A DNA stretch of 64,000 nucleotides from Candidatus Bathyarchaeota archaeon (lineage in GTDB: Archaea; Thermoproteota; Bathyarchaeia; Bathyarchaeales; Bathycorpusculaceae), in assembly GCA_963702095.1 (NCBI GenBank), contig OY969706.1, positions 480,001 through 544,000 on the forward strand. Reading direction: 5' to 3'. The notes under the pieces are model-generated. The model did not search any database and was not told the origin of the DNA. It worked only from the letters and a program-made list of their open reading frames with translations. Below, in pieces: positions 48,843 through 64,000 of the stretch. Made by a program: the position numbers and the translations under genes. Position 1 is the stretch's first letter; the number at the start of each line of letters is the position of its first letter.

Positions 48843-49565
48843 ATGAGTTTTCTATTTGTTGAGACTGTTTTATCCGGCGTATTTGTTGCCTCCGCCTTCC
48901 TCATCGGCGCATGGATAGCAGTTTCAGTTGATTACTCCACACGGGAAAAAGCTCTTTTCGCAGCCTTCGGCGCGGGCATATTTCTTGCCGCAACTATGCT
49001 TCTAATTCAAGAAACCCTCAAATTAGGCAATTTCTTGGATTTGCTTTTAGGGTTCATTTTAGGAGCATTAACCTTTGGCATCGCTCAACACTATTTCAAA
49101 CATGACGAGAACGTAAGTTCGAAACAGCCCAAAGGCAGACTCTCGATTGTAGGAACCATTTTAGACAGTGTCCCTGAAACGATATTCATCGGCGTTATAA
49201 TTGCGCTTCAGGAACCAGGATTATTCGCTGTTGAAGCTGTGCTTTTTATGGGTAACTTGGCAACCACTTTGGAGGGGGCAAAAATAATGCAGAAACAAGG
49301 CTTAAAAAAGAGAATTATTATGAGAGATTGGCTGGTTGACTTTGTCATCGTGGCGGTTGCAGCGCCGATTGGTTATTACCTCGCAAAAAATGTTATCCAA
49401 GAGTTTATAGCGGTGGTTTTGGGGTTTGCAGCTGGAACATTGATTGTTTTTGTTGCGGGGGAACTTATAGCCAGAGCCTACCGTGAATCCACAGGTCACG
49501 CTGAGGACTTTGCCATATCTGTGGGTTTCCTTGTGGGTATTCTGTTACTTTTTGTCCTTGCATAA
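48843..49565 (+). CDS. ZIP-family metal transporter-like protein
   Basis: AFGAGIFL, LDSVPE, GFAAG; ~8 TM. Confidence 0.75.
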   Translation: MSFLFVETVLSGVFVASAFLIGAWIAVSVDYSTREKALFAAFGAGIFLAATMLLIQETLKLGNFLDLLLGFILGALTFGIAQHYFKHDENVSSKQPKGRLSIVGTILDSVPETIFIGVIIALQEPGLFAVEAVLFMGNLATTLEGAKIMQKQGLKKRIIMRDWLVDFVIVAVAAPIGYYLAKNVIQEFIAVVLGFAAGTLIVFVAGELIARAYRESTGHAEDFAISVGFLVGILLLFVLA

Positions 49566-49644
49566 AAGCCAATTTTTCCTTGTAATCCTGTATTTGCAGG
49601 TCTAAAAGCTGAGGATTCGAAATGGAGCGGAAATGGGAATGGAG

Positions 49645-50242
49645 TTACCGTTCCCAGACGCTACTTAAAACAGAAATTCTCCTTTTTAAAATGCGGATTG
49701 GGTTAATTTTGAACCCCAGACCCCTTAACGCACGTGCCCCAGCTACTGCAAACACAACAACAAACATTAGAACCAAAAAATTAAAACTGAAGACAAAAAA
49801 AATCAACCCTCCAAAAATTGGAATTAAATATATTGGGAAGATTGCCGGCATACTCCTGTTGATTTTCTTTGGAAAGGTTCTCATCATTCTTTTTCTTGAA
49901 CCTTGCAGAGATTTGACCATGTCCACTGGGACAGGTGCCGCCAAAATTCTGGCAATATGGACAAACAAACGTAGCCATCCAAAATACGACTACGATTCCA
50001 TATATGATGTAGGCTGCTGTAGAGAGCCAAGCGGTAAATGAAAAATTAAGCGTAACTAAAAAGATGGATGCTCCTAGTAGTATCATTATTGCATAGGGCA
50101 GATTTTCAACAAACATGGCGGAACGGCGAGTTTCCCTTTTGTGGCCGTCTATGCTGGCTTTGCTCTCTATTCTTGCGTCTGAGGTGGCAATTTTAACCAA
50201 TGAAAAGTTATCTATTTCTGGAAAATCAGTTTCAAGACTCAT
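49645..50242 (-). CDS. Cys-containing membrane protein (frameshift near 49880)
   Basis: Two TMs + CPYC…CPSG in one frame continue into FPKK…IYLIPIFGG TMs in another. Confidence 0.55.
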
Positions 50243-50623
50243 TAACTCAAGCCACCCATCCTTTTTTCAACCTTTTTAGCTTGCACGCTTTATTAAACAT
50301 TCTAGCACGCGTTTGCATTCTTAAAGCCATACTGCAAAACCTGGTTGATTCATTGCTGAGGTTCGGAAAATGGAGTTGAGGATGAGAATTGAACCATATA
50401 GAGCACAACTCTGCAGGCTGTCTATGATACATAAGAGCCTTGCTTGGCAAGGTTTTTACTATCAATTTTTCTGCTGCTTTTGAAAGCTTATTGTCGTCAG
50501 TTACCGGTATTTTCCCTTTTTCAGATGCGCTTACCGTTGAGTCGTTATTGTCAAAGACAATATAAATCTATAGTGATAAATGTCACAAGTTAAAGATAAG
50601 CAATAACTCAAGCGAGTGGGATA

Positions 50624-51505
50624 ATGGAAACACTGTATAAGTCGATAACACGAAACGATATTAGCCGTTACAAAACAATATGCGAAACATTGATTACGAA
50701 AACACAAGTTGCAAACGATTACACTACACTAAGAATCCTATTTATCGATAATAATTCCCTGCTTGAGGTTTTCCAACAAGAAATCACCCAAGCAATCGGT
50801 GGACACTTCCACGGCAATTTGCCAACTCAGGCTCATGCCTACGCCTCAAAACAAGGTCGAAGCGCTATAGCAATTAACACGGATGATTTGAGGAACAAAA
50901 CAACAGATAATTGCGAGTTTATTATTTTAGAAAAACTTTGTCATTTGTTAGATTATGCCGCAGACGATTTTACTCAAAGCGAACAATTACTTAATTTCCT
51001 TAATGCATACAGCAGAAACGCTGATTCTCATTTTGCATCTGAAGTTACCGAGAACCTTGACCGACATTACAATCATTATTACGTAAACAAACTCGTGCTA
51101 TCCTTTGATGTAGAAAAATGGATTCAATTCAAAGGTGGCTATTACGAAAAAAGCTCAAGAGCCCAATTAAGTCGCTTATTTTCTGAAATCAGGGCAACAA
51201 GACCACCCAAACATTGCCTCGTAGTCATTACGACAGAAATCCTAAAGATGCTCTGTTTTGCACGTGCTGTAGAGAGTTTTTTACTGTACGCAGAACTGCC
51301 AGAGATACAACAACTACAGCAACTAACTGGATGCAAAAACAATACATTCGAAACAATAAGATTTGCAGAGCTGAATGCGAAAGCGATTGATAATACCTAC
51401 CCAAACACAATTGATTACTTTAGACCAAATGATTTTGTCTCTAAGGATAACTTTTTTATCAGAATCAGGCAATTTTTTAATTATCTCCACTTGTTGGGGC
51501 ATTAG
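50624..51505 (+). CDS. Hypothetical protein, possibly a degenerate zincin
   Basis: 293-aa AT-rich ORF; FIILEKLCH resembles an HExxH helix. Confidence 0.55.
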   Translation: METLYKSITRNDISRYKTICETLITKTQVANDYTTLRILFIDNNSLLEVFQQEITQAIGGHFHGNLPTQAHAYASKQGRSAIAINTDDLRNKTTDNCEFIILEKLCHLLDYAADDFTQSEQLLNFLNAYSRNADSHFASEVTENLDRHYNHYYVNKLVLSFDVEKWIQFKGGYYEKSSRAQLSRLFSEIRATRPPKHCLVVITTEILKMLCFARAVESFLLYAELPEIQQLQQLTGCKNNTFETIRFAELNAKAIDNTYPNTIDYFRPNDFVSKDNFFIRIRQFFNYLHLLGH

Positions 51506-51553
51506 AGATTACAAGTTTTGTATTTTATTTGTTTGGAACCAATAATAGAAGTA

Positions 51554-51581
51554 TGGAGCTGGGGATGGGAATTGAACCCAT
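51554..51581 (-). other. tRNA 3'-end fragment (probable att site)
   Basis: Minus strand ATGGG-TTCAATT-CCCAT-CCCCAGC-T-CCA is a T-arm, acceptor strand, discriminator and CCA; no 5' half is present. Confidence 0.8.
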
Positions 51582-51634
51582 TCCCGAGTGGAGATATCAC
51601 CCGCATACCCCTCTTTTTTCCAAATTTAGTTAGT

Positions 51635-52495
51635 TCAAATTTTTGATGGACTTAGTCTCAACAAGAACATTGTTTTTATAAACTCATAGATTTTTGGATC
51701 GTCTATACAAATACCTTCATTTGTTCCTTCATCAGCGTTCTTATTCCAGCCCAACAGTACCTGATTAATACCAGTCATCGCTGAAACGCCTTTGTAGGGG
51801 TCTACACCAATCAGTTCGTAATAGAAATGATGAGAATATTTTTTTTTCACAGCATCAACTATTTCTATTTGGTCCAGAATTGGACTTACAAGAGCGTAAA
51901 GCTTGCCGCCTCTGGAAAAATAGTCTCTCAAAGTTGCTCCAAATTGTTCTACAGGATCTAACTCTTTTGAAGCCATTCCTACGTCATCGAGTATGGATTT
52001 ATAGAAAACTCCTCTTCTACTAATAACAAAGACTTCATCAGGTTTTTTCTTAATCATTTCAATTGCTTTTCTGTAGAAAGTGTCTCTTCCAAATAAATAT
52101 TCGAAATGAGGGTCTGGCGAAGTCGGACCAGTTCCATACTGCTCTATGTATTTGTTAAGAGAATCCAGAGAAATGTGGTTAAGCTGTTGGTTGAATCTCA
52201 ATTGTGCCTTTTCTAACATCGTTTTTATGGTGTCGGGTGGCAAGATTTTGTATTTTGCTGGTCTCTGGTCTTTTGGTGTTGTGAGAATTATTAAGTTCTT
52301 AGTGTGAAGTGATTTGAGAGCAACATGCACTTTTCCTAACTGTATCCTCTTTCCCCCAGAAAAAGCAATTGTCTTAGCATCTGCAGGCTCCTTTGCTCGA
52401 AGTAAAGCTCTGAGTGTTTGCTTTTCCTCTGTTGATAAACTTTCACCCATTTCTGTGAGTATATCGAAAATATCTTTCTCTGCACTTGAGTCCAT
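51635..52495 (-). CDS. TrmB-like wHTH regulator with C-terminal sensor domain
   Basis: LS.EE…LL….ADAKTIA…KVH.ALKSL..KNLI…RPAKYK.LPP. Confidence 0.7.
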   Translation of the reverse strand: MDSSAEKDIFDILTEMGESLSTEEKQTLRALLRAKEPADAKTIAFSGGKRIQLGKVHVALKSLHTKNLIILTTPKDQRPAKYKILPPDTIKTMLEKAQLRFNQQLNHISLDSLNKYIEQYGTGPTSPDPHFEYLFGRDTFYRKAIEMIKKKPDEVFVISRRGVFYKSILDDVGMASKELDPVEQFGATLRDYFSRGGKLYALVSPILDQIEIVDAVKKKYSHHFYYELIGVDPYKGVSAMTGINQVLLGWNKNADEGTNEGICIDDPKIYEFIKTMFLLRLSPSKI

Positions 52496-52541
52496 AACAC
52501 CACCAAACTATTTGTTATTGGTTCTAATATTTAAAATATTC

Positions 52542-52562
52542 GACTATTCATAATAAATAGTC
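52542..52562. promoter_or_regulatory. Palindromic operator GACTATT-N7-AATAGTC
   Basis: Perfect 7-bp inverted repeat next to an AT-rich TATA-like box between two divergent genes. Confidence 0.55.
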
Positions 52563-52612
52563 TTTTGTAGTTAGCCACCCTGATTATTCGTAGATATCGA
52601 GGTCGAGAGATA

Positions 52613-52756
52613 ATGTTGGAGCCTATAATAATAGGGTGCCAAACAAAATCTGAATTCATAATCTGCGGGAACTGCATCTACTTCAGGGAGTGTAAACTTC
52701 GTACCAGATTAGGAGTGGGCAAAGAAGATCCGACGAGCAAGATTTGGAAGCGATAA
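52613..52756 (+). CDS. Unannotated 47-aa Cys-rich peptide
   Basis: MLEPIIIGCQTKSEFIICGNCIYFRECKLRTRLGVGKEDPTSKIWKR; GAGGT SD-like sequence upstream. Confidence 0.5.
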   Translation: MLEPIIIGCQTKSEFIICGNCIYFRECKLRTRLGVGKEDPTSKIWKR

Positions 52757-52898
52757 CTAACAAAACGCTATACCGTCCCCGATACGAATTAGGACTAATT
52801 GAAAAACGCTTTGCAGTGTACAAATATGGATTGCTTCGGAACCCTCAGTTCAGTGAAGATGTCACCCTCATTACCCATTTTTTTCGTTAATAATTGGG

Positions 52899-53435
52899 CT
52901 ACAGGTTAAGGCTACAAGCTAGATCCAGAAGGTCCTTCAGTTCTTTTTGACCTATATTGTATTTGTCAAGTAGTGCTGCGAGTTTCAAGATGTCAAGAAC
53001 TTCGACTGGGATTGGAATTGTCCTATTCCATGCCTGTATAGCCCTCCAAGCTTCAGGTTTTATTTCACCATTAGTCACTAACAGAAGGCGCCTTGGATTA
53101 TCTTTTGATGTGCCATTTGGAAAATCGTGTTCTAGAGTACAAAAGGCTGCAAACATCTGACCCGATATTGTATTCATCCAATCAGGTAATGAAATGTCTC
53201 CAACTTTTACTTGTATAAGCAGAATCTGTTTTTTGCCTAATGGGTCATTTGTTTCATCGACGGTAGCGATTGTATCTTTTCCATGCTCGCTGGGACCATG
53301 AAGTGGTTGCACATTGAATTTAGAAATTTTTGTCGCAAGAAAAACTCTAACTAGTTTTCTTAATTTATCCTCATCCAGCTGCTGTAATGCAGGTACGATC
53401 AATAGTAAATCGGAGGACAAGATAACGAGCTCCAA
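52899..53435 (-). CDS. Mrr-like restriction endonuclease-fold protein
   Basis: HGPSEHGKDTIA…LIQVKVGD (D…QxK), LLVTNG. Confidence 0.7.
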   Translation of the reverse strand: MELVILSSDLLLIVPALQQLDEDKLRKLVRVFLATKISKFNVQPLHGPSEHGKDTIATVDETNDPLGKKQILLIQVKVGDISLPDWMNTISGQMFAAFCTLEHDFPNGTSKDNPRRLLLVTNGEIKPEAWRAIQAWNRTIPIPVEVLDILKLAALLDKYNIGQKELKDLLDLACSLNL

Positions 53436-54068
53436 TCAAGCAGTTGGCTTTTTGGATTGATCGGTAGCTTCAATTTTTTGTTTTTGTTCCTGATATTTTC
53501 TCATAATCACTTCAAGTTCTTTCTTCTCATCCTCAGGTGATTTGACAAGAAGCCCGCCAGTGTTCGCAAGAAACTTGCCGAGCGTTCTCTCAATCGACTC
53601 AAGTTTTTCAGACATCTGTTTGATACGACGATCAAGAGGTTCATCCACCAACATTTGTGCCGTGATCCAGCTATTCAGTACCGAGCGTGTGTCAATAGAA
53701 TCTTTGGAAGTAAACTCAACATTGAAGAGATTCTTGCATTTAGAAACCATGTTTATTGAAGTAATCTTTTCAGCGATTGTTTTCATATCGCTTTCTGGAA
53801 GGAAAAATCTCTTCTTTTCGCCGGCATTTAATATGGGGAAAAATACCTTCTTTCTATAGTCTGTAACCGGTTCTACCCAGAACTCAACCTGCAAGTCAAT
53901 TGCGGGGGTATTGCTAACATTTTGTATTCCAAATACTACAGAAACGGGACCGAGTGTATCTAGCAGAGGTTTGATTACGGGTGAATATCTCAATTGATTG
54001 CTTACTCGTACTTCATTGGTTAAAGCTTCAAGTGACTTTGATTTGTCTTGATCCATCAAACTCCCCAT
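53436..54068 (-). CDS. Hypothetical protein (Ig-like domain + coiled coil)
   Basis: IQNVSNTPAIDL…ILNAGEK beta-sandwich pattern; abuts the nuclease gene. Confidence 0.55.
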   Translation of the reverse strand: MGSLMDQDKSKSLEALTNEVRVSNQLRYSPVIKPLLDTLGPVSVVFGIQNVSNTPAIDLQVEFWVEPVTDYRKKVFFPILNAGEKKRFFLPESDMKTIAEKITSINMVSKCKNLFNVEFTSKDSIDTRSVLNSWITAQMLVDEPLDRRIKQMSEKLESIERTLGKFLANTGGLLVKSPEDEKKELEVIMRKYQEQKQKIEATDQSKKPTA

Positions 54069-54240
54069 TTACTTATCAGTGTTTACCAATTTAATAGTAG
54101 CGATAAGGAGTGCTCATTCAGACTCAACGATCAGAAATCGCTCTTTAATATAGTGGAGCATTTTGCCCATGGGAGAGTTTTTTGCCAAAGACAAATTAGC
54201 CAAGACCAAGTAGTCCTATCTTCAGGGGGATGACGCTAAA

Positions 54241-55275
54241 ATGTTTAGGGATGCACCCGAATCATATCAGGGTAACGTTTTTCTTGAAGCTGCTTCCAGG
54301 CCAGCCAGCTTTGTTTCTGAATTATTCTACAATGGTACGTTTCAAAATATGGATTCTCTTTTTTACAATGGTTGGACGGATAAAGTTGTTGAAAGGTTGA
54401 AAATATCCAAGGGATTATTTCTTGCTTGTTACTTAGCTGATTTGAATGCTGCAATTCAAAATATGAAGAAGTTCAAGTGTTTCGATGGCATATTGGAAAA
54501 ACTATCTGAAGTAGATGATAATTTTATTCCTACGGTTTTTGAAATTGAGGCCGCAGAATTGATAATTAACATGTTCAAGGAACGTGCAACTGATCTAGAA
54601 TTTGCAGGGTGTTTTGCAACTAACGGTGACAAAAAGATCGATTTGAGGTTAAAAGTGGAAAATCACTGGATCTATTTCGAGATGACCAAAATTATGGATT
54701 ATGTTGGAAAGCTAGATACACTTCGTCTTTACAATTTGGCTTGTTCTTTTCTACTGGGTGCTAAAACACTTTCCGGAAAAACGCTTGAATTGCAACTTAT
54801 TTTCGAGAATTCCCCAAATCAAGGTTCAATTGACAGTGTTCTGAATGAAATTTCAAGTATGTTATCCAAAAATATATTTGAATTTACGGTTATCCATGAA
54901 AAATTCAAGTTTTCAGCAAAAGAAACAATTGTACCGAATGTTAGGCTTAAGATAAAATCAGATACTATAGCAAATAAATTAAAAGACAAGTACTTTGAAG
55001 AGCTAGAGCATTTTGATAATCAAACCATTAATTTGACTGTAATTGACACAACTTATTTGCCGGATACTCCGGGTGAATTGATTGATCTCACGCGAAAGAT
55101 CTTTAAGACCGAAGGAGACCTGAGTCCAATCTCAGCTGTAATTCTAGCCTGTAAGAAACATGTGATAGACAATAGAAATGCTTTTCCAATAACAGGAGCT
55201 TGGGAATTACCCGTTATTTTCAACGATAGATGTGATAAATATAAGATTGTTAAAGGGTTATTCCGTTTCAGTTAA
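54241..55275 (+). CDS. Hypothetical protein with possible PD-(D/E)xK-like motif
   Basis: FEIE…KIDLRL…IYFEMTK. Confidence 0.55.
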   Translation: MFRDAPESYQGNVFLEAASRPASFVSELFYNGTFQNMDSLFYNGWTDKVVERLKISKGLFLACYLADLNAAIQNMKKFKCFDGILEKLSEVDDNFIPTVFEIEAAELIINMFKERATDLEFAGCFATNGDKKIDLRLKVENHWIYFEMTKIMDYVGKLDTLRLYNLACSFLLGAKTLSGKTLELQLIFENSPNQGSIDSVLNEISSMLSKNIFEFTVIHEKFKFSAKETIVPNVRLKIKSDTIANKLKDKYFEELEHFDNQTINLTVIDTTYLPDTPGELIDLTRKIFKTEGDLSPISAVILACKKHVIDNRNAFPITGAWELPVIFNDRCDKYKIVKGLFRFS

Positions 55276-55309
55276 TTAACCCCTTTTTTGATTTTACTTG
55301 AATGGCCAA

Positions 55310-56254
55310 TTAACAATTATCTTTGAACCTAGACTCAACACCTGGATACCCAAAGCCTTCAACTGGCCAAGGTTCAGCCGGAAGTTTTGAGAAGATGATT
55401 TCCAATTTCGTGTAAATCGAGTTAGCCCAGGTTGTTTCTGGGGTATCCTTGAGATCTGGAATTTTTTGTTTTAAGTGTTCGCAAGCAAGTCCCAGTTCGT
55501 AGTTGGCAGTCTCGACTTTCTTCTTTCCGTCCATTAAATAGGAGATCGCTACACCCACTTTTTCGATTGGATAAAGTATAACGTCGGCTAAAACTCTTCC
55601 AGGCTTTCCTAATTCATAAGTTTGGGTTAATTCTAAAAGAATATGTTGAAGTTCGAGCAATAGATCGATGTGATCTTCAGGATAAACCACTTCAACTGGA
55701 TACCGTATTGCCTCTTGATAGTATTTTTCGGTTGCGACTTGATAAATTCTCATGGCGCCACCTAGATATTCGTCATCTAAAATCTTTTGAATTGATTCTG
55801 CTTTACTGAATTCCAAAGCTTTGCTTAGATAAGTTTTAGTTTGGATCCAATCCGGCTTTCTCATGGCATTTACAGAACTTCCAATACTATTAAGCCACTC
55901 CAAAATATCATGGCTCTTATACTTCTGTTCTTTTGAAATTTCTAATCGATAGAAAATGTCAAAAAGGCTTATTTCGGTATCTTGCATCTCAATAGCTAGA
56001 TCTCGCCAATCTCGAGAGGGTGGATCAAAATTGATAAGTGGTTCTAAGGCAAATCCCAATTCTCTATGGGTTCCGTTAGAAGAGCTCGTTAATTCTTTGT
56101 GAAGCTTAACAATATCGCCCTGGCTAATCTCTTGGTTGGAATAAAGGCGTTCCAGTTGATCCATTATTTTCGGTAATGAATTGTCATATCTGTAATTGTC
56201 AATGCACTCAATTAAAACAGATCCAATCACAAACTTTGCAATCTTCGGGTCCAA
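55310..56254 (-). CDS. Hypothetical alpha-helical protein
   Basis: 314-aa ORF; no family recognised. Confidence 0.6.
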   Translation of the reverse strand: MDPKIAKFVIGSVLIECIDNYRYDNSLPKIMDQLERLYSNQEISQGDIVKLHKELTSSSNGTHRELGFALEPLINFDPPSRDWRDLAIEMQDTEISLFDIFYRLEISKEQKYKSHDILEWLNSIGSSVNAMRKPDWIQTKTYLSKALEFSKAESIQKILDDEYLGGAMRIYQVATEKYYQEAIRYPVEVVYPEDHIDLLLELQHILLELTQTYELGKPGRVLADVILYPIEKVGVAISYLMDGKKKVETANYELGLACEHLKQKIPDLKDTPETTWANSIYTKLEIIFSKLPAEPWPVEGFGYPGVESRFKDNC

Positions 56255-56337
56255 TCTAATTCCTTCTTTTATTAATGAGGGCTATAATTAGTCTTAAGGT
56301 TTGCCAAGGAAATTACGAATGCTTTCAGTGTGCACCT

Positions 56338-57069
56338 TTATACATGGAGACGAGAGTAGAAATGTTCAGCTTTTTGATTAATAACTGAAATAATAAGCCA
56401 AGTTCCGTAGTGGACGTGTGTTCCTACTAAGAAATATGGGTTGAAATCGTTAACAAACTCACAAAAACTGTTTTCGATCTTTTGCATGGCCTTGGGAGAA
56501 TTATTGTTCAAGAGTAGCTTTCTATAATAATTCCCAATTTCCATATCTTCGCACATAATTGAGTGTCCTTTGCAGTTTGGACGACACAAGAAATCTATCT
56601 TCATCCAGAAAGGAAGCAAACTAATTGAATTTATGCTCTTTCCTCTGAGACGAGTGTAATGTCCAGTTTTTCTTTTGCACTGGCGGTCTGCCCGGCAACT
56701 GGTTATTTCTGTGGGCTTGATTATTGAGAGCGACATTTTATTTCTTTGATTAAGGTAATCAAGTGAGGGACTTGTGTTGTTTCTAATTTTTTCAGCAACT
56801 GTAGCTTGGCTAGCGAAATCCAAAGGCTCAATTGTGTTATATTTTACTTTGCGGCTCTCGGGTCTACCGTCTCTGTTCGCTTTTTCATCAATTTCGTAGC
56901 TTATGTATTGGAACTTCTTAAATGGTCTACAAACGTAGTGACTCATTGGAACGGAGTACATGCGTCTAAATTTGCCCTCGGAAGTTATGCCAGCCACGCA
57001 AATGGCTACTTCATACGTTCTGCTTGTGTGGGGTTCTGCAATTCCCAATACTAACATTTTTTCCTTCAT
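56338..57069 (-). CDS. DUF488-associated OB-like hypothetical protein
   Basis: PHTSRTYEVAICVAGI…RRMYSVP…FKKFQ…DGRPES, FxC…C.GH…CEDxE, GTH…WLIISV. Confidence 0.65.
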   Translation of the reverse strand: MKEKMLVLGIAEPHTSRTYEVAICVAGITSEGKFRRMYSVPMSHYVCRPFKKFQYISYEIDEKANRDGRPESRKVKYNTIEPLDFASQATVAEKIRNNTSPSLDYLNQRNKMSLSIIKPTEITSCRADRQCKRKTGHYTRLRGKSINSISLLPFWMKIDFLCRPNCKGHSIMCEDMEIGNYYRKLLLNNNSPKAMQKIENSFCEFVNDFNPYFLVGTHVHYGTWLIISVINQKAEHFYSRLHV

Positions 57070-57111
57070 AAATTCACTTCAGATAATAATCCTCGTTCTG
57101 ATAAAATAGAG

Positions 57112-57540
57112 TCAGAGATGAATAATTTCAAAACCTTCATTTATCATCTCAGCAACCAATCGCCTGTGACACTTGTCTGCTTTATCCTCACTGCACAGTA
57201 GACATGACACTTTTGTGTCTAATTTTAGGTCGTTTAGAATTTTCTTTGCATTTCTTGAATCCATAAGCGATTTGAAATTAACTTCATATTCAACCCAGTT
57301 TTTATCTTTACGATACTTGGAAAGAAGAGCTTCATCTGGAGCAAGTTGTTTAACACTAACGTATTCAATTCCAAATTGGCTTAGGATGAATTCCAGATCC
57401 GGACTTTTGGCAAAGCCTGAGAGTTGAGAAGAGTTATTCAATCTAATGTCCACAATTCTCTGGACCCCTGCCTCTTTCAGACGTGTGATGAATTCTTCTA
57501 AAGTCTTTTTGGTGAATCCAATTGTACATATCCTGTTCAT
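57112..57540 (-). CDS. DUF488 family protein
   Basis: TIGF, DIRLNNSSQLSGFAK, LLCSE…CHRRLVAE. Confidence 0.9.
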   Translation of the reverse strand: MNRICTIGFTKKTLEEFITRLKEAGVQRIVDIRLNNSSQLSGFAKSPDLEFILSQFGIEYVSVKQLAPDEALLSKYRKDKNWVEYEVNFKSLMDSRNAKKILNDLKLDTKVSCLLCSEDKADKCHRRLVAEMINEGFEIIHL

Positions 57541-57554
57541 CGAATAATCCTCTT

Positions 57555-58058
57555 CTAGAATCCTGTTAGTTTACTTTGATTCTTATTATTACTAGCTGTC
57601 TCTCGCTTTTTTGATCTTTTTGGTGAGAGAGTAAGGGTATGTGTATCTGCGTTTCCATCTTTATCTATGACTGTCACATCAATACCTCTCTTAATTAGTT
57701 CTACGATAATAAAGCGTCGATGACACTTTGAAATATCGAACTCCGAGCACATTAAGGCAGAAGACTTCTTTCCAATCTGTCGCAGTAGAAGGTCGATATT
57801 TTCTTTGAAGGCGGCTGAAGCGTGGAATTTTTCAAAGCCTCCAGTAGGGCGCCCTCCAAGTTTATCTCCAAAGTACAGATAGTCAATGTTTTCTCTTTGT
57901 ACAGAGGAAGATAGACTTTCGCGGTTAAAATGCGGAACATATTCGCTGTAGGGTTGAGACCTCAAATCAACCAAACACTCGATGTTCCATTTCTTGAGCC
58001 TCTCAATGAAGCCACTTAAGCTTTCATTTCCTGGGCATATCGAGAATATCATGGACAT
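57555..58058 (-). CDS. DUF488 family protein (second subtype)
   Basis: DLRSQPYS..VPHFNRESL, LGGRP, LMCSE…CHRRFI. Confidence 0.88.
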   Translation of the reverse strand: MSMIFSICPGNESLSGFIERLKKWNIECLVDLRSQPYSEYVPHFNRESLSSSVQRENIDYLYFGDKLGGRPTGGFEKFHASAAFKENIDLLLRQIGKKSSALMCSEFDISKCHRRFIIVELIKRGIDVTVIDKDGNADTHTLTLSPKRSKKRETASNNKNQSKLTGF

Positions 58059-59510
58059 ACACCTTCTGCGTAATAATCCGGAACTGTCAAAACGCTTACG
58101 ACCATTGGCCAGTACCTCGGCTGAATTGAGCTTCCAGGTGGAGCATATTTTCCATCCTTAATCTTATTATTGGAATCAAGGGAATCTCCAGTTAAACCTA
58201 TCACGAAATACGTTTCCTTGTTTCTAAGTTCAACGATGTCCTGTGAATTCATTATTGTTTGATTACAGTTTTCAAGTTTGTCAATGATGAATTTGCAAAA
58301 TCTAATATCAGTGCACGTTATGGAAAAGACTCTTTGTTTATCGCTCTGCCTAACTATCCATATTCTGGGGTGTTTTTTTCCGATTACTATGTTGGATTGA
58401 ATTTCAAAATAAGGCACGGGACCCACTAAAACTAGCGACTTTTCTAGGCTGGTGGATAGTTCATCAAATAGTTCTTCCCGAGAACTGACTTTGTTAAGAA
58501 TTCTGTTATCGACCACTTCTGAGAGCAGACTTTTCCGTGTTTCTTCTTCTAGATTCATTACGAATTTAATGCCTTCTACTGCGCTAAATAGCAAATTCTC
58601 TTTTTGATGCTTGATTGGAAAGTGATTGCTAAATCCCATCTCGACAACATCAAAAAGTGATAGCCTCTTGCCATTGTCCATAATTATGTCTTCTTCCCCA
58701 AAACCCCCTGGTTTAATCGGACGAACCCATAATTTATCCTCATCTACCCCTGCAAGACAAATTCTTCCGTTTTTTTCCGATTCTACTAAGAATAGTAACT
58801 AATCGATTTTCTTGAGTTGAACTATATAAGGCATTTTGGGATTTGTCTAAACCCAGTTTTTTAAGTCTCGAACGGATAGCTCCTGTTCTTCTTTGGTGCT
58901 TTTTTGCTATCTCAGAAACAGAAAAACCTTCCTTGAAATATTTGGATAATTCACAATCTTCGTCCGGAGTCCAGCTTTCATATGCTCTCGGATCCTTTTT
59001 TCTAATTTCGCCAAGGTCGTATGACTTATCTTGAATTGCTTTCTGTGAAATCAATTGTTTTGGTTCGTCAGTAATAGAATTAAAATATGCTTTACCTGTT
59101 CTCTTAGAAATGTTAACAACAAACTTCTTCCTGGCTGAGAGATTTTGAAGTTTGCTTGTGTCTTTCCTTGTTGTCACAATATCTAGATCTTGGGCTTTTG
59201 TTCGAATTTCAAAAGCAAACTCGATCCCTTTATCTGATTTCCATATAACGTTAATTAAGCTTGTTCGCCCTTCTCGGACCAAATCCGGAACAGGATACTC
59301 AGTAATTGAGTGAAAACCTAGCTCATTGCCTATTCTCCATAACTTATACTCTGCAAGCTTGTGAACCCTCTTTCCAGCTTCAATTTCTACCCCCCCGAAT
59401 AGTTTTGCTAAATCTGCACCATCCCAGGTCTGCCATAATTGAGAACCGCAGTTAGGGCAAAATTTGTATTCTATTCGCGTTTCGTTTTTGCAGTTTGAAC
59501 AAACTGGCAT
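58049..59510 (-). CDS. Zn-ribbon/nuclease-like/Myb-like/dual-OB fusion protein (frameshift in A7 run at 58770-58776)
   Basis: CSNC…CPNCG; EYPV…FAFEI; WTPDED..L…EIAKKHQR…IRSRL; removing one A gives ILSRIGKNGRICLAGVDEDKLWVRPI, continuous with 58049-58681 (HQKEN, CTD..F, VIGL). Confidence 0.7.
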
Positions 59511-59589
59511 CCGTAATCTATCAGTTGTTTGTTGTGAAGTAGTTTTAAGGATTGTGAACTAGTGATATTAATGCAGCTATTCGTGACGC

Positions 59590-59817
59590 ATGGAGAGCGA
59601 TAAGGTGGGCGCAACTTGGTTAAAAACAAATCCAGAGAAATGTGTTCACAATTGTTCCATACTTAGAATACATGAATCTTATATGTGTAGTGATTACATT
59701 AAAGATTGGAAAAACTCTAGGTGCCATCTGGAGTTACCTAGAAGAACCAATAAGCCACCCAATAGCACGGAAAAGGATAGAAAGAAACAGCTGAGAGTGT
59801 TAGCCAAAGCAGACTAA
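59590..59817 (+). CDS. Small hypothetical protein with four Cys
   Basis: 75-aa ORF at the head of the helicase operon. Confidence 0.4.
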   Translation: MESDKVGATWLKTNPEKCVHNCSILRIHESYMCSDYIKDWKNSRCHLELPRRTNKPPNSTEKDRKKQLRVLAKAD

Positions 59818-59864: not shown

Positions 59865-61922
59865 TTGGACTATGATGAATGGAATAATGCGATAGGGCGC
59901 TATTTCTTCAATGCCCAAAACTGCGGTAAAGAAGTATTACTTTTCGTTAATGATGAGCGTCTCAACGAGATAGGGCTTGAAGATGATGCTACCGTTGCAG
60001 ACTTTATAAGTGCAGTTAAAAAGAAAGCGGCAATAGTTTCCGGGGGCAACCTTTGCAAACGAGCTCTTCAATTGTATGACGACTGGAGAGAAGCAAAATA
60101 CGAGTACCCCCCATACTTGGCCTATCTCGCTTTCTTCGTCCTCGCTACGACTGCTGAAGGAGATTTTGACCCCAACGCGTACTATCCGCGGTACTGGGCT
60201 TTACTGAATGAACCTGGTCAGGGAGCTCCCCATGGTTTCTACGATACAGCAGATCTTTGGGAAGATTTAGAGAAGTGGACTGTTGAGGACAAAAAAGAGC
60301 AACTGGGTCGTTTCAAGGCCAGAATACGAGGAAAATGGCGCCATGTAGGGCGCCCTTTATCACAAACGCTGCTTTCAGAAGATGAGCGCAAAGCCTTGCC
60401 AGAAATATTTCGTGACTGTGGCTTTGATCCAACAAACATTCCCTCTGAAGCAACCATTAAAAACGGGCTCCTTCAACACGGAGATTACCACCTAAGGAAA
60501 CGAACCATCAAACTGCTAAAGAGCCAAGCCGGCGAAAACGAAGAATTTGTAAATTCGCTTCTAGACCTTGTAATTACAGAACTGGAGCAATGGGGTAAAT
60601 ACGAAGTAACATCTCCAATCGAAGAAAAAAGTGTCCCAAGCGAAAAGCAGCACGCAGAAAAAACAGCCCCGGTACCATCTCTTTTCCTTCGGACCTGCCT
60701 AGAAATAGATACGCCAAAACAACATGTCCGCCTGAGCCTTAGACTGAAGACTAATCGTCAGTACCCCGAAGATGAGTTGAAATTCGAAATCGCTGGAAAA
60801 GTATTATTTTGCACAGAAACCTATCCCGTAGGCTGGTCCACCCAGCTCACAGAGGTTTCCGCCAATGCTCCACTCGACCCCGCCACATTGGACTGGAGCA
60901 AAAACTGGACGTTCGAAGCCGAAAACGGCTGGACCGCATCCTACAAAAGTCAAGAATTCCGCCTATTCCGCCCCGGAGAAGAAGAGGCCTGCCGGGATTC
61001 ATTGAGTCTCAGAAGCTCGCGCGCAACATTGAATTCTTCCTGCTCTGCAGCAATACCTGTGCCAAGGCAATCCGAGAATGGGGTAAGGACGCCTGTGAAG
61101 AATTCTCTGACCTAAAATACTCTGGCATACCCATCAATTGGTCTCTTTTCAGAGGCATGAATGCAAACAAATCCCTTCCAGGCGTAGATGTCCTCGAGTT
61201 GCCCACACTTACTAGAATCCAACTGAGATGGCGGGATTCTCATTGGGCACGGCAACCAATACCTTGCTTTTGCACCTCCAAGAATAAGAATCGACGGCGG
61301 CATGGGTAATGAAGAACTGTTTCTAAACGAAAAAAAGCTCCAAAAGCTTGAAGGCAGCAGCTGGGACCTCCCCCAAAATGCCCCGATTGGCATCCCTCTT
61401 AGCCTGCAAATCCAGCGCAACGGCGAATTTCTAAGCAAAACCGTCGTGGAGCTAGTTGAACCAACCATAAAAATTCTCCCCTCAAATGAGATGCTAAAAC
61501 GCGACCGCGAAGGAAACTCAACTGCAGAAGAAACGCAACATTATGTTACAGGAGCATCAGTTTTTGGAGAAAATGGAAAAACTGTTTCGCCTCGAATCCA
61601 AATAACTTCTCTGCCGGGAACGCTAATCCTTGTCGGTCGGGAAGCAGGACAAATAGCGAGATGGCCAAAAGAGCCTTTCCCCACGGCTTGGACCCCAGTG
61701 TGGGCAATTCGACGCATTGCTCGCAAGAAATGGCAGGCTCAATTCTGCGGGCAAGAAATCTCGCAAGGGACAAGCCCCATGGAATCCGACACTTACTCTA
61801 TCAAACGGAGAAAAGAATGGAGGGAAGCCCTCTGGATAATGAGGCAAAGAGCGCTTCCCCCTCAACTCCCCGAACTTAGCCAACTTTGGACAAGGTACAC
61901 GGAGGTTGCTCAAGATATCTGA
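59865..61922 (+). CDS. Druantia-like accessory protein (frameshifts near 60988 and 61225)
   Basis: YDEWNNAIGRYFF…PPYLAYL…VGRPLSQTLL; three frames join (GEEE|LPGFIES…IQL|DGGILIG…PPRIRIDGGMGNEEL) to ~685 aa. Confidence 0.6.
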
Positions 61923-62895
61923 TAAATTGCTAAACGCACTCAGCTCAAAAGGTGAGATGCGCACAGAGGAATTCTACAACATTTTCAGCATCGTTTATGC
62001 CCAAAACCCAAGTGCATACGCAGCAGACCTAAAAAACGAAAGATACAAAACAATAAGGATGCTCGACTCGTTGGGGCATTGTGAATTCGACTTCACGCGC
62101 AGAAAAGTCTACGTTTGCCCTCCAACACTTGTCGGCATGCCATCAATCGGGTTGCCCCGAGTCCTTCTTACCGGAGCGAGATCCAGCACACTAATACAGG
62201 AACTGAAGGCTGCAGTCAAAAGCACCGGGGGAGCTGCATACATAATAATGCAACAGCAAACCGAACCTTTGCTTCCGACAGCATTTATCATTGAATCAAG
62301 CAACCAAGGCGCAATAGCAGAGATTGCCAAAAAAACGGGCATAGCTTACAGTCCCAACATAGCTTCCTGGGAAATAATCAACTTCGCCGCCGGACTCGAC
62401 CAGATAGCGCTACACTTTCTAGAAAGAAAACCCCCAAATTGGCAAAGCCAAACGTTCTGTCCAACGCTCCTCAAGTTCATGAGGCAACCAGCAAGTCAAG
62501 ACCTGGACAAGCTCGTGGGATACAAAAACCCAATTACCCAGCAGTACGACCACTGGCTCTGGAGAGGAACGCTTGCCGCCGAAATAGACCGCGACTTGGG
62601 TCGCTACCTAATGCTCGTAAAACATGGCATAAGCGTCCTAGTCCACGACCGGGTCCACAATTACCTTCTTGTTCCGGAGCAAATACCACTACCCCGCCTT
62701 TTTGCCAGAGCATTGGCGCTCTGTTCAGGTAAGGCGCCAATTAGCCAATATCTAAAGGAAAAAACAAGCTTCAAACGGATAAACGAAATTCCAATGCAAA
62801 TCTACTCAAAAGTCCCAACAGAAGTTGTCGACATATTAGCCAAAAAGCTTTCGCAAACGCCCTTCGTTGGCGAAATTAGTTCAAAACAATGGTGA
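61906..62895 (+). CDS. Druantia-like accessory protein
   Basis: LDSLGHCEF, LTGARS, PLPRLFARALALCSG; overlaps both neighbouring genes. Confidence 0.6.
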   Translation: MLKISDKLLNALSSKGEMRTEEFYNIFSIVYAQNPSAYAADLKNERYKTIRMLDSLGHCEFDFTRRKVYVCPPTLVGMPSIGLPRVLLTGARSSTLIQELKAAVKSTGGAAYIIMQQQTEPLLPTAFIIESSNQGAIAEIAKKTGIAYSPNIASWEIINFAAGLDQIALHFLERKPPNWQSQTFCPTLLKFMRQPASQDLDKLVGYKNPITQQYDHWLWRGTLAAEIDRDLGRYLMLVKHGISVLVHDRVHNYLLVPEQIPLPRLFARALALCSGKAPISQYLKEKTSFKRINEIPMQIYSKVPTEVVDILAKKLSQTPFVGEISSKQW

Positions 62896-64000
62896 AATAC
62901 ATGATTGACCCAATAGGCTCCTTTGACGAAGTAAAAAAGAATGTAATCCTTTATATCCAAACCGCTTTTGGAACAAGCTTCAAAGCAATCGAGGACGAGC
63001 GAGAGAAGCTCCTTTTGGACGAAAACGTCCTTTCCAGAGACCCATACATTGAGCCTTTGCCCAAGTATCAATCGTCTGGTAAGAAAATATTAGACCTTGT
63101 CAAAAACGATTTGCCCAGCTTAGGTGACCAAGAACTAGACCTCTTCAAATCTTTAGTCTCGTGCGGCCTGTTTGGGGGGTCCAGACAAATGTACCACCAT
63201 CAATTAGAAATGCTGCAAAAAGCGGTATCGGGAAAGAACTGCATAATTACCGCTGGAACTGGTTCCGGAAAAACTGAAGCGTTCCTTCTTCCCTTATTTG
63301 CCTACCTAGCAAATGAGTCAAATTCGTTGGCCAGCTCCCTCAGCGCCTGATGTGCACACTAAAGATTGGTGGTCGAACGTTGCATATCAAGACTCATGTC
63401 TAAAACAAAAGAAATCCTATCGCGTCACGCAAAGAAACGGCGAAAAGAGAGAAGCCGCTGTTCGTGCGATAATACTATACCCAATGAACGCGCTCGTGGA
63501 AGACCAACTTATCCGCCTCAGAAAGTCACTAGATTCTGATTCCGCCCGGCAATGGTTCGACAATAAAGCGCATCGAAACAGGATATACTTTGGCAGATAC
63601 TATGGGAATACTCCAATACCAGGGCATGAAAAATCGACTTCATCGTCAGGAATTCCAACCTATGACTTCAAGAAGCTGGATAGACTTGCAACGAAGCTAA
63701 AAGACCTTGAAAAGGACGCAAACGAGGCCGCAAAGGAAAGCAAAAAAGTCGAAAATAGCGATCCAGAGTTAGCAGATGTGATTAGGTATTCTTTCCCCCG
63801 TCTTGATGGTAGCGAAATGCGTTGCAGGTGGGACATGCAGGACTACCCGCCAGACATCCTAATCACTAACTTTTCAATGCTGAGTGTAATGCTCATGCGT
63901 AACGAAGATTCACCAATCTTCGAAAAAACGAAAACATGGCTCAGACAAGACAAAAAGCACATTTTCCACCTTATAGTCGACGAATTGCACATGTATCGTG
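62889..64000 (+). CDS. Large DEAD/DEAH-box helicase, DruE-like (partial; frameshift near 63328)
   Basis: PYIE, HQ, TAGTGSGKTEAFLLP, then shifted frame AVRAIILYPMNALVEDQL.RLR, FGRY, RWDMQDYPPDILITNFSMLSVMLMR, VDELHMYR. Confidence 0.88.

Follow-up and report, generated by a model that had tools for sequence, protein, structure and literature searches.

We describe here a cassette of four genes on the minus strand (56338-59510) of a 64,000-nt stretch of DNA, called the window below, from a Candidatus Bathyarchaeota archaeon (contig OY969706.1, positions 480,001 to 544,000 of the forward strand). The two central genes encode proteins of the DUF488 family, and the two outer ones encode proteins with OB folds. 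The locus merges two catalogued, untested cassettes, PDC-M45 and PDC-M19, and is not a new kind of system: genes 1 to 3 correspond to PDC-M45 A, B and C, and gene 4 to PDC-M19B. An initial annotation of this DNA had presented the four genes as a candidate uncharacterised defence system; both parts were already named, and Pfam holds DuOB (PF22557) as well as DUF488-N3a (PF22751). We lean, by a modest measure, towards reading the cassette as a horizontally acquired, composite member of the DuOB/DUF488 cassettes, which are candidates for a role in conflicts with viruses and mobile elements.

Five open reading frames (ORFs) on the minus strand make up the locus (58740-59510, 58049-58681, 57555-58058, 57112-57540 and 56338-57069), and their coordinates agree with the tightly packed, co-oriented arrangement of four genes reported earlier, gene 1 being divided over the first two. 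Genes 1 and 2 overlap by 10 nt; gaps of 14 nt and 42 nt separate genes 2 and 3, and genes 3 and 4, respectively. The features are listed below, where P0027 is an intact homologue of gene 1, HTH stands for helix-turn-helix, and aa for amino acids.

58049..59510, minus strand: gene 1, a Zn ribbon / nuclease-fold-like / HTH / DuOB fusion of 486 aa when read through, PDC-M45A type; split in the assembly into ORFs 58740-59510 and 58049-58681 by one surplus base
59436..59504, minus strand: Zn ribbon of gene 1 (residues 3-25), CxxC...CxxC, the four Cys read from the translation
59073..59420, minus strand: alpha/beta domain of gene 1 (residues ~31-146), placed from the model of P0027 and the homologue alignment
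58806..59015, minus strand: HTH region of gene 1 (residues ~166-235), motif AYESW...AIRSRLKKLGL
58049..58799, minus strand: DuOB domain of gene 1 (residues ~238-486), PF22557, spanning the frame break
58790..58796, minus strand: frame-break site of gene 1, ACTATTC, one base more than in intact homologues
58770..58776, minus strand: A7 run, ~20 nt downstream of the likely break
57555..58058, minus strand: gene 2, a DUF488 paralogue of 167 aa, PDC-M45B type (PF04343), catalytic-type residues kept
57112..57540, minus strand: gene 3, DUF488-N3a, 142 aa, PDC-M45C type (PF04343, PF22751), the best-conserved component
56338..57069, minus strand: gene 4, a tandem-OB protein of PDC-M19B type (from PADLOC and the predicted model), with a Cys/His cluster in the second OB

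A complete PDC-M45 set followed by a PDC-M19B-type gene

Matches to the PADLOC models of PDC-M45 were obtained for all three components. The A model matched ORF 58049-58681 alone with an E value of 3.8e-4 and gene 1 read through with 2.7e-10, while P0027 gave 7.7e-11; the B and C models matched genes 2 and 3 at 2.5e-28 and 2.2e-46. The three genes are adjacent, on the same strand and in the order A-B-C, as they are in two other loci, L147 and L148, and they are packed as tightly as there. Compared with PDC-M45, the DuOB gene here differs by an N-terminal head of about 235 aa (Zn ribbon, nuclease-fold-like domain and HTH) and by its broken frame, and a fourth gene of PDC-M19B type is present.

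The match of gene 4 to PDC-M19B (1.7e-27) extends over the full length of the protein, with residues 3-233 aligned to profile positions 6-240 of 252. PDC-M19 consists of an N-terminally extended DUF488 (A) and a tandem-OB protein (B), and the present locus resembles it in that a DUF488 gene lies directly upstream of gene 4 on the same strand. This upstream gene, however, is gene 3, which is of M45C type rather than M19A type (155 bits on PDC-M45C versus 64 on PDC-M19A) and has no N-terminal extension, and it stands 42 nt away where the two genes usually overlap.

For the annotation, a match to an already characterised system would have refuted its proposal, and such a match exists only halfway. 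It is a computational one, to a catalogue entry: according to the accessible part of the source preprint, the PDC systems, PDC-M45 among them, are 145 untested single- and multi-gene candidates found through 'guilt-by-embedding' in BREX, DISARM and type I restriction-modification (R-M) loci (Payne et al., bioRxiv 10.1101/2024.01.29.577857). A literature search with 'PDC-M45' and 'PDC-M19' as names returned nothing.

Two smaller conserved units

The four genes had been proposed to form one symmetric unit. What is conserved, instead, are two shorter units, namely the three-gene DuOB, DUF488, DUF488 and a pair made of an M19A-type DUF488 and an OB protein of the gene-4 family (g5-like in what follows).

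The pair was followed in 121 loci with relatives of gene 4, 41 from genomes (38 titled archaea) and 80 from metagenomes. A DUF488 gene was found directly upstream of the g5-like gene, on the same strand, in 101 of the 121; in 95 of these 101 the two genes overlap or are at most 10 nt apart, the median spacing being -4 nt. For the other loci, the DUF488 gene was convergent (7) or elsewhere in the locus (1), no DUF488 gene was present (5), or too little upstream DNA was available (7). All these counts overstate independence, because some loci are duplicates (L022 = L056; L098-L101). The DUF488 partner was of M19A type in 7 of 7 cases tested, often with an N-terminal extension that has no Pfam match. 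The same pair is found on 16 of the 17 IMG/VR viral contigs that encode g5-like proteins. Relatives of the DuOB fusion were absent from the 121 loci, and Pfam DuOB was absent from five genomes with PDC-M19-type loci. Two loci (L063, 72-839 and 899-1711; L074, 406-1152 and 1211-2014) each hold two tandem g5-like genes, with no DUF488 gene detected, a further form of duplication of the OB component.

The three-gene unit occurs in L147 and L148, which come from two unrelated small archaeal genomes. Both have the order DuOB, M45B-type DUF488, M45C-type DUF488, and then an unrelated fourth ORF; intergenic gaps are of 2 nt in L147, and one 2-nt gap and one ORF overlap are found in L148. The order M45A, M45B, M45C was typed with PADLOC for L147 only, where the fourth ORF gave no PDC-M19B match.

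Linkage of gene 4 to the other three was seen only in close relatives. Contigs of sequencing run X2 contain a relative ~85-90% identical that covers all four genes, one contig of 1291 nt running from gene 4 into gene 3. Similarity to this relative ends at the stop codon of gene 4, and ORF 55310-56254 is therefore placed outside the cassette. Indirect linkage, resting on equal contig sizes only, was recorded for further homologues: for each of 11 homologues, fusion or DuOB, there is a contig of the same size with a homologue of gene 3; the contigs of P0027 and of P0010, a homologue of gene 4, are equal in size (43,987), as are those of a gene-4 and a gene-3 homologue (10,726). Because g5-like genes pair with M19A-type DUF488 elsewhere and PDC-M45 has three genes in two other genomes, the four-gene form is, by the comparison of these loci, a lineage-restricted composite.

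The distribution of DuOB in the phylum of this archaeon is restricted to its own genome among 401 sampled (0 of 400 others, including 0 of 10 of the same genus and 0 of 25 of the same family). In a second phylum, 4 of 401 genomes have it, 3 of them above the cut-off; this count includes an unpublished genome, G765.

Gene 1 is a broken fusion

The DuOB model scored 35.7 bits (cut-off 27) on ORF 58049-58681, over profile positions 47-173 only. On gene 1 read through, the score rose to 61.2-66.2 bits, with residues 238-405 or 241-405 aligned to profile positions 3-172 or 6-172 of 210. A search with the read-through translation retrieved P0027, an intact fused protein of 486 aa (82% identity, 99% coverage), and further fused homologues formed a series of 416-643 aa; those of full coverage are mostly 41-57% identical to gene 1. 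In addition, the DuOB frame is open for 38 codons 5' of its ATG without a start codon. That the first gene is a broken fusion, as the initial annotation held, is thus confirmed.

The position of the break had to be revised. The annotation repaired the gene by deleting one A in the A7 run (58770-58776). The frame is opened by this deletion, but comparison with homologues places the break at 58790-58796. In the alignment of fused homologues the junction reads ...ENRL(V/I)TFLVKSEK.G.ICLAG. The frame of the upstream ORF gives ENRLVT and the DuOB frame gives FLVESEKNGRICLAG; because these come from different frames, the surplus base falls in ACTATTC, outside any homopolymer. In the segment that separates the break from the A7 run, the consensus FLVKSE is matched at 5 of 6 positions by the DuOB frame (FLVESE) and at 1 of 6 by frame 1 (ILSRIG). 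Programmed +1 slippage on the A7 run is unlikely, because the segment between break and run matches the homologues in the other frame.

With gene 1 interrupted, either the system would be inactive in this genome or the assembly would be wrong at that base. The frame break may be an assembly error, because the same genome, a single 2.94-Mb contig with a completeness of 90%, has a fragmented aminoacyl-tRNA synthetase gene. This class-I synthetase gene (PF00133, C1:1013348-1016500) is spread over at least 4 frames, in pieces of 187, 604, 102 and 248+ codons.

The competing view, that the break is real, the first gene dead and the whole island, including the Druantia-type operon next to it, on its way to being lost, is a serious possibility, to which we give somewhat more than one chance in three. 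Within ~6 kb, the frame is broken once in gene 1, twice in DruF and once in DruE, never in a long homopolymer, and long ORFs elsewhere in the window (567, 574, 685 and 894 aa) are intact. Moreover, a 151-nt contig from the independent-looking marsh-metagenome run X1 aligns to 58789-58921 without a gap and with a single mismatch over 133 nt, so the same extra base is present there. X1 may, however, be the source sample of the assembly, and its contig has a depth of 2, stops matching at 58788 and continues with 18 unlike nucleotides just past the break. This mismatched tail, beginning beside the break, could correspond to strain variation at that spot. The split synthetase gene and the completeness of only 90% make assembly indels likely, and genes 2 to 4 are full length relative to their homologues, which does not suit a decaying cassette. 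No indel was listed at the break site in runs X1 or X2, which is not a proof of sameness. None of the sequencing runs contained half or more of the sampled words of the stretch; two contained 0.06 of them and gave fragmentary contigs.

Domains of the fused head

The N-terminal CxxC...CxxC motif is conserved in homologues of gene 1, and three Pfam Zn-ribbon families (Zn_Ribbon_1, DZR and Zn_ribbon_3) match it with E values of 2.6e-4 to 4.6e-4, below their cut-offs. For the alpha/beta domain that follows there is no Pfam match. In the AlphaFold model of P0027 (pLDDT 80.1, pTM 0.52) its secondary-structure order is a-a-b-b-b-a-b-b, which is that of the PD-(D/E)xK nuclease core. Two weak leads point the same way: a chain of the SPARDA complex at rank 49 of the Foldseek list of P0027 (probability 0.99, 122 columns, residue ranges not given), and Atlas clusters with Hjc or NucS_C near the domain at 0.78-0.79. 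The domain probably has the PD-(D/E)xK nuclease fold, as judged from the model. Most homologues read IDVVWK...AFEIR in this region; gene 1 (LINVIWK) and P0027 carry Asn for the conserved Asp. In homologues of 620-643 aa (P0028-P0033), the nuclease-fold-like module is present twice; the second copy is more degenerate, its conserved Asp and Glu positions being replaced (ISVVWK...AFQVRRK).

A disordered linker separates the alpha/beta domain from the HTH region in the model of P0027, and three helices are predicted in the latter. The description of this HTH as Myb/SANT-like was not borne out; its only matches are weak ones of GcrA type (E 0.0016-0.0031, below cut-off) and one to phrog_323, a 'transcriptional regulator' (1.5e-8). 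The motif is also found in RecQ-type helicases (P0054-P0062). Further proteins that the fusion query brought up (P0050, P0052 and P0053), one of which carries Pfam DuOB, have it at their C-terminus. When the fusion was searched by tblastn, the HTH alone matched among plasmids, in 2 Burkholderia records, and no match was obtained in 50,697 GenBank phage records.

The two outer proteins

Gene 4 has no Pfam match at E <= 1. Its AlphaFold model (pLDDT 91.5, pTM 0.89) finds as best PDB entries, with Foldseek, the tandem OBs of archaeal RPA, Oxytricha telomere-end-binding protein alpha (TEBP-alpha), CST and HIN-200 (probabilities 0.82-1.0 for the top 30), and VIA-align aligns its residues 1-87 to an OB of RPA with a Z of 8.6. 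The model of P0027 matches the same set of proteins: its Foldseek list, which gives no residue ranges, is dominated by tandem-OB binders of single-stranded DNA (CST, RPA70, TEBP-alpha, POT1), with probabilities of 0.54-0.99 for the top 10. Together with the DuOB score of read-through gene 1 (61-66 bits), these matches confirm both outer proteins as tandem-OB proteins. The resemblance of the predicted folds of gene 4 and P0027 to RPA, CST/CTC1, TEBP-alpha, POT1 and HIN-200 goes with a sequence identity of 5-13% only, and TM-scores are low because domain orientations differ. None of these five kinds of protein is partnered with DUF488 enzymes, and a shared fold does not mean a shared function.

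Are the two outer proteins related to each other? Pairwise BLASTP of gene 4 against the fusion gave nothing significant, and a PDB sequence search with the g5 profile gave nothing. Alignment of the gene-4 family to the fusion family with hhalign had a probability of 5% with a shallow alignment, and of 81.7% with 74 diverse sequences (E 1.1e-5, 180 columns spanning the whole DuOB domain). A DuOB cluster of the Atlas, a lead only, lies near gene 4 at 0.87. Gene 4 is likely a divergent DuOB, judging from these profile and model comparisons. Its close relatives number 25 in a word-indexed search, and a full profile search yields a family of 2,736 cluster representatives (1,685 at 1e-10). It also matches phrog_25907 (4e-23).

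The DUF488 pair

Genes 2 and 3 score 59.3 and 83.3 bits on PF04343 (cut-off 22.2) and are 26% identical to each other. Gene 3 belongs to DUF488-N3a (PF22751, 49.1 bits, cut-off 27); for gene 2, the Pfam models of the two subclades, N3a and N3i, gave no match at E <= 0.01. An alignment of 60 DUF488 sequences has eight invariant columns (D31, R33, S38, C116, E118, C124, H125 and R126 in gene-3 numbering; the last five correspond to C104, E106, C112, H113 and R114 in the other of the two proteins). Since all eight residues are kept in both genes, the observation that the two proteins retain the C-x-E...C-H-R motif holds.

The DuOB, N3a and N3i families of Pfam presumably derive from Burroughs & Aravind 2023, a computational classification said to place DUF488 in the rhodanese-phosphatase superfamily. 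With respect to these families, DuOB matches gene 1 and DUF488-N3a matches gene 3; gene 2 differs in having no subclade match while keeping the catalytic-type residues. A PDB sequence search with gene 3 gave nothing, and one with the DUF488 profile gave insignificant rows only, among them PRL phosphatases (E 0.65-0.99).

Homologues of gene 3 are 68-85% identical among the 119 matches listed, the protein of the window itself excluded. Matches to phrog_14939 and phrog_2450 were recorded; as a single query against viral contigs, gene 3 found none. DUF488 occurs in 7 of 14 control genomes. A third DUF488 gene of the present genome (C1:2491661-2492029, 115 bits) stands alone, with no DuOB or g5-like gene within 3.4 kb. 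The family is a large one for which a whole-word search of the literature with 'DUF488' found no demonstrated activity, and nothing on the present cassette. As far as the accessible parts of the sources go, DUF488 is reported on Methanoperedens plasmids, and a ParB-DUF488-HTH fusion is reported to bind CTP.

Genomic context

The DNA around the cassette is low in GC, 0.36-0.39 at 50-60 kb compared with mostly 0.42-0.55 over the first 48 kb. Beyond gene 1, the divergently oriented Druantia genes DruF, DruL and DruE adjoin the cassette, so the back-to-back arrangement with a Druantia-like operon noted initially is found as described. They were identified with PADLOC (DruF 5.4e-115, DruL4 7.1e-84, DruE 1e-88). 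Druantia is a separate system, with no component in common with the cassette, and is itself frame-broken. Its operon (59865-64000, plus strand) has DruF in three frames (profile positions 1-368, 362-447 and 448-677) and DruE in two within the part visible in the window, with break sites outside long homopolymers.

On the gene-4 side, eight ORFs of 153-344 aa in the low-GC stretch 48843-56254 could not be assigned to a family in Pfam, NCBIfam or PADLOC; the sole exception is a weak match, below the cut-off (E 0.0035), to Mrr_cat, a restriction endonuclease, at 52899-53435. Two exact copies of a 16-nt sequence in direct orientation (52162-52177 and 59629-59644, 7,467 nt apart) bracket the cassette and four unassignable ORFs; by rough arithmetic about 0.04 such repeats are expected by chance, and the two copies may be the borders of an insertion. 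Pfam and other family scans of the ORFs of the window revealed no gene for an integrase or for replication in the island. The ATP-dependent ligase and KaiC genes of the window fit an archaeon.

The surroundings of g5-family loci were scanned with PADLOC at a threshold of 1e-10, covering 124 ORFs from 15 loci (of 180 ORFs in 22 qualifying loci). Models were matched by 23 of the 124 ORFs, in 10 of the 15 loci. Clear defence genes are present in L064, L093, L005 and L068, and neighbours include CRISPR-Cas I-B (L093), type IIG R-M (L005 and L064), and AbiU and pAgo-associated genes (L064).

A candidate conflict cassette and the alternatives to it

The proposal of a nucleic-acid-directed defence cassette is supported at the level of a candidate, with the low GC content and the DruF/DruL/DruE neighbourhood on its side. 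Our best guess for the function, by analogy with known folds, is a conflict system that processes nucleic-acid ends. The locus contains a complete PDC-M45, with a DuOB protein, 'B' DUF488 and 'C' DUF488-N3a, the head being placed on the DuOB protein, and a second tandem-OB protein of PDC-M19B type is attached directly downstream without the M19A-type DUF488 that usually precedes it. The two tandem-OB proteins may bind single-stranded DNA or DNA ends, as do RPA, CST and telomere-end-binding proteins, and the HTH/nuclease-like head could add recognition of duplex or sequence. OB proteins and head together would then recruit the two DUF488 enzymes, with their Cys/His/Arg residues, to the end of a foreign nucleic acid, at its terminal phosphate or sugar. 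Once this end was processed, the foreign molecule would no longer be replicated or packaged. Such processing of DNA ends in virus-host conflict systems is reportedly what Burroughs & Aravind 2023 predicts.

Several points weigh against this interpretation. The DNA-end chemistry is inferred from fold resemblance and from the prediction reported for Burroughs & Aravind 2023. The putative nuclease Asp is Asn in gene 1, and the first gene is frame-broken, as are DruF (three frames) and DruE (two frames) beside it. The 121 loci contain duplicates, so that their counts exaggerate the number of independent cases. The neighbourhood count has no control set, several of the PADLOC matches are to generic helicases or methyltransferases, and 5 of the 15 loci have no match. 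The PDC candidates are themselves described as untested in the accessible part of the preprint (bioRxiv 10.1101/2024.01.29.577857). Finally, predicted viral contigs and PHROG families also contain the pair, which fits a function serving the mobile element as well as a prophage-borne defence.

This last point leads to the first functional alternative, in which the module serves viruses or mobile elements by protecting or processing their own DNA ends, or by countering host defence, and chromosomal copies are cargo of integrated elements. The 17 IMG/VR contigs with g5-like proteins, 16 of them with a DUF488 partner, are compatible with it, and so are the matches of gene 4 to phrog_25907 and of gene 3 to phrog_14939 and phrog_2450, the telomere-end-binding proteins among the fold matches, the possible 16-nt direct repeat bracketing 52162-59644 and, as a lead only, the nearest Atlas clusters at 0.96, which are 67-74% viral among members with a record. 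The fusion protein, however, is without a match in the GenBank phage records, prophages, frequent carriers of defence cargo, are among the IMG/VR contigs, the island has no integrase or replication gene that we could find, and the PADLOC candidates, as the accessible part of their description has it, were embedded in host defence loci. On balance we consider this alternative unlikely, at about one chance in five.

Rather less probable still is a cassette whose DUF488 enzymes have RNA ends or small molecules derived from nucleotides, rather than DNA ends, as their substrates, the OB proteins being sensors of RNA or ligands, in a system of abortive-infection or signalling type. Binding of RNA and of small ligands is likewise known for OB folds, anticodon-binding OBs of aminoacyl-tRNA synthetases and ribosomal proteins appear in the fold lists, and Burroughs & Aravind 2023 is said to propose that the clade acts on RNA termini and on the sugar groups of NAD+ derivatives. 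Nevertheless, the highest-ranking fold matches are binders of single-stranded DNA and of DNA ends, the HTH of gene 1 is common to RecQ-type DNA helicases and accompanied by a nuclease-fold-like domain, and neither Pfam nor PADLOC found a nucleotide cyclase or another signal-generating gene in the operon. That the cassette is a housekeeping module of the host for DNA repair or lesion handling seems very improbable: the core factors of replication and repair include tandem-OB proteins such as RPA, and DUF488 is widespread (7 of 14 control genomes), but DuOB is missing from all 400 further genomes sampled in the phylum and present in 4 of 401 in another, the surrounding DNA is low in GC with otherwise unassignable genes, and the genome has a separate stand-alone DUF488 gene elsewhere.

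Within the interpretation that we prefer, a conflict cassette acting on nucleic-acid ends, a more specific scheme can be drawn, which we offer as a long shot. The two tandem-OB paralogues and the two intact DUF488 proteins might form one hetero-complex that recognises two different ends, or a junction of single-stranded and duplex DNA, on invading linear DNA, and that caps or uncaps the terminal phosphate. PDC-M45 and PDC-M19 would then be two reduced forms of such a 'DNA-end modification' immunity, a mode not described before, with the OB partner setting the target specificity.

Significance

The locus physically links PDC-M45 and PDC-M19 and suggests that their OB proteins are homologous, so that a single experimental system could account for both cassettes. 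From the fused head, with its Zn ribbon, nuclease-fold-like domain and RecQ-like HTH, DNA is the indicated substrate. Conservation is far higher for the M45C/N3a enzyme than for its partners, at 68-85% identity among the matches listed versus 50-75% for gene 4 and 41-57% for most full-coverage fusion homologues, which is the pattern expected of a fixed catalytic core with fast-evolving recognition subunits. For a large family whose activity is not reported as demonstrated in the literature searched, and for DuOB/DUF488 cassettes that are so far catalogued, untested defence candidates, this locus gives concrete constructs for a first biochemical test.

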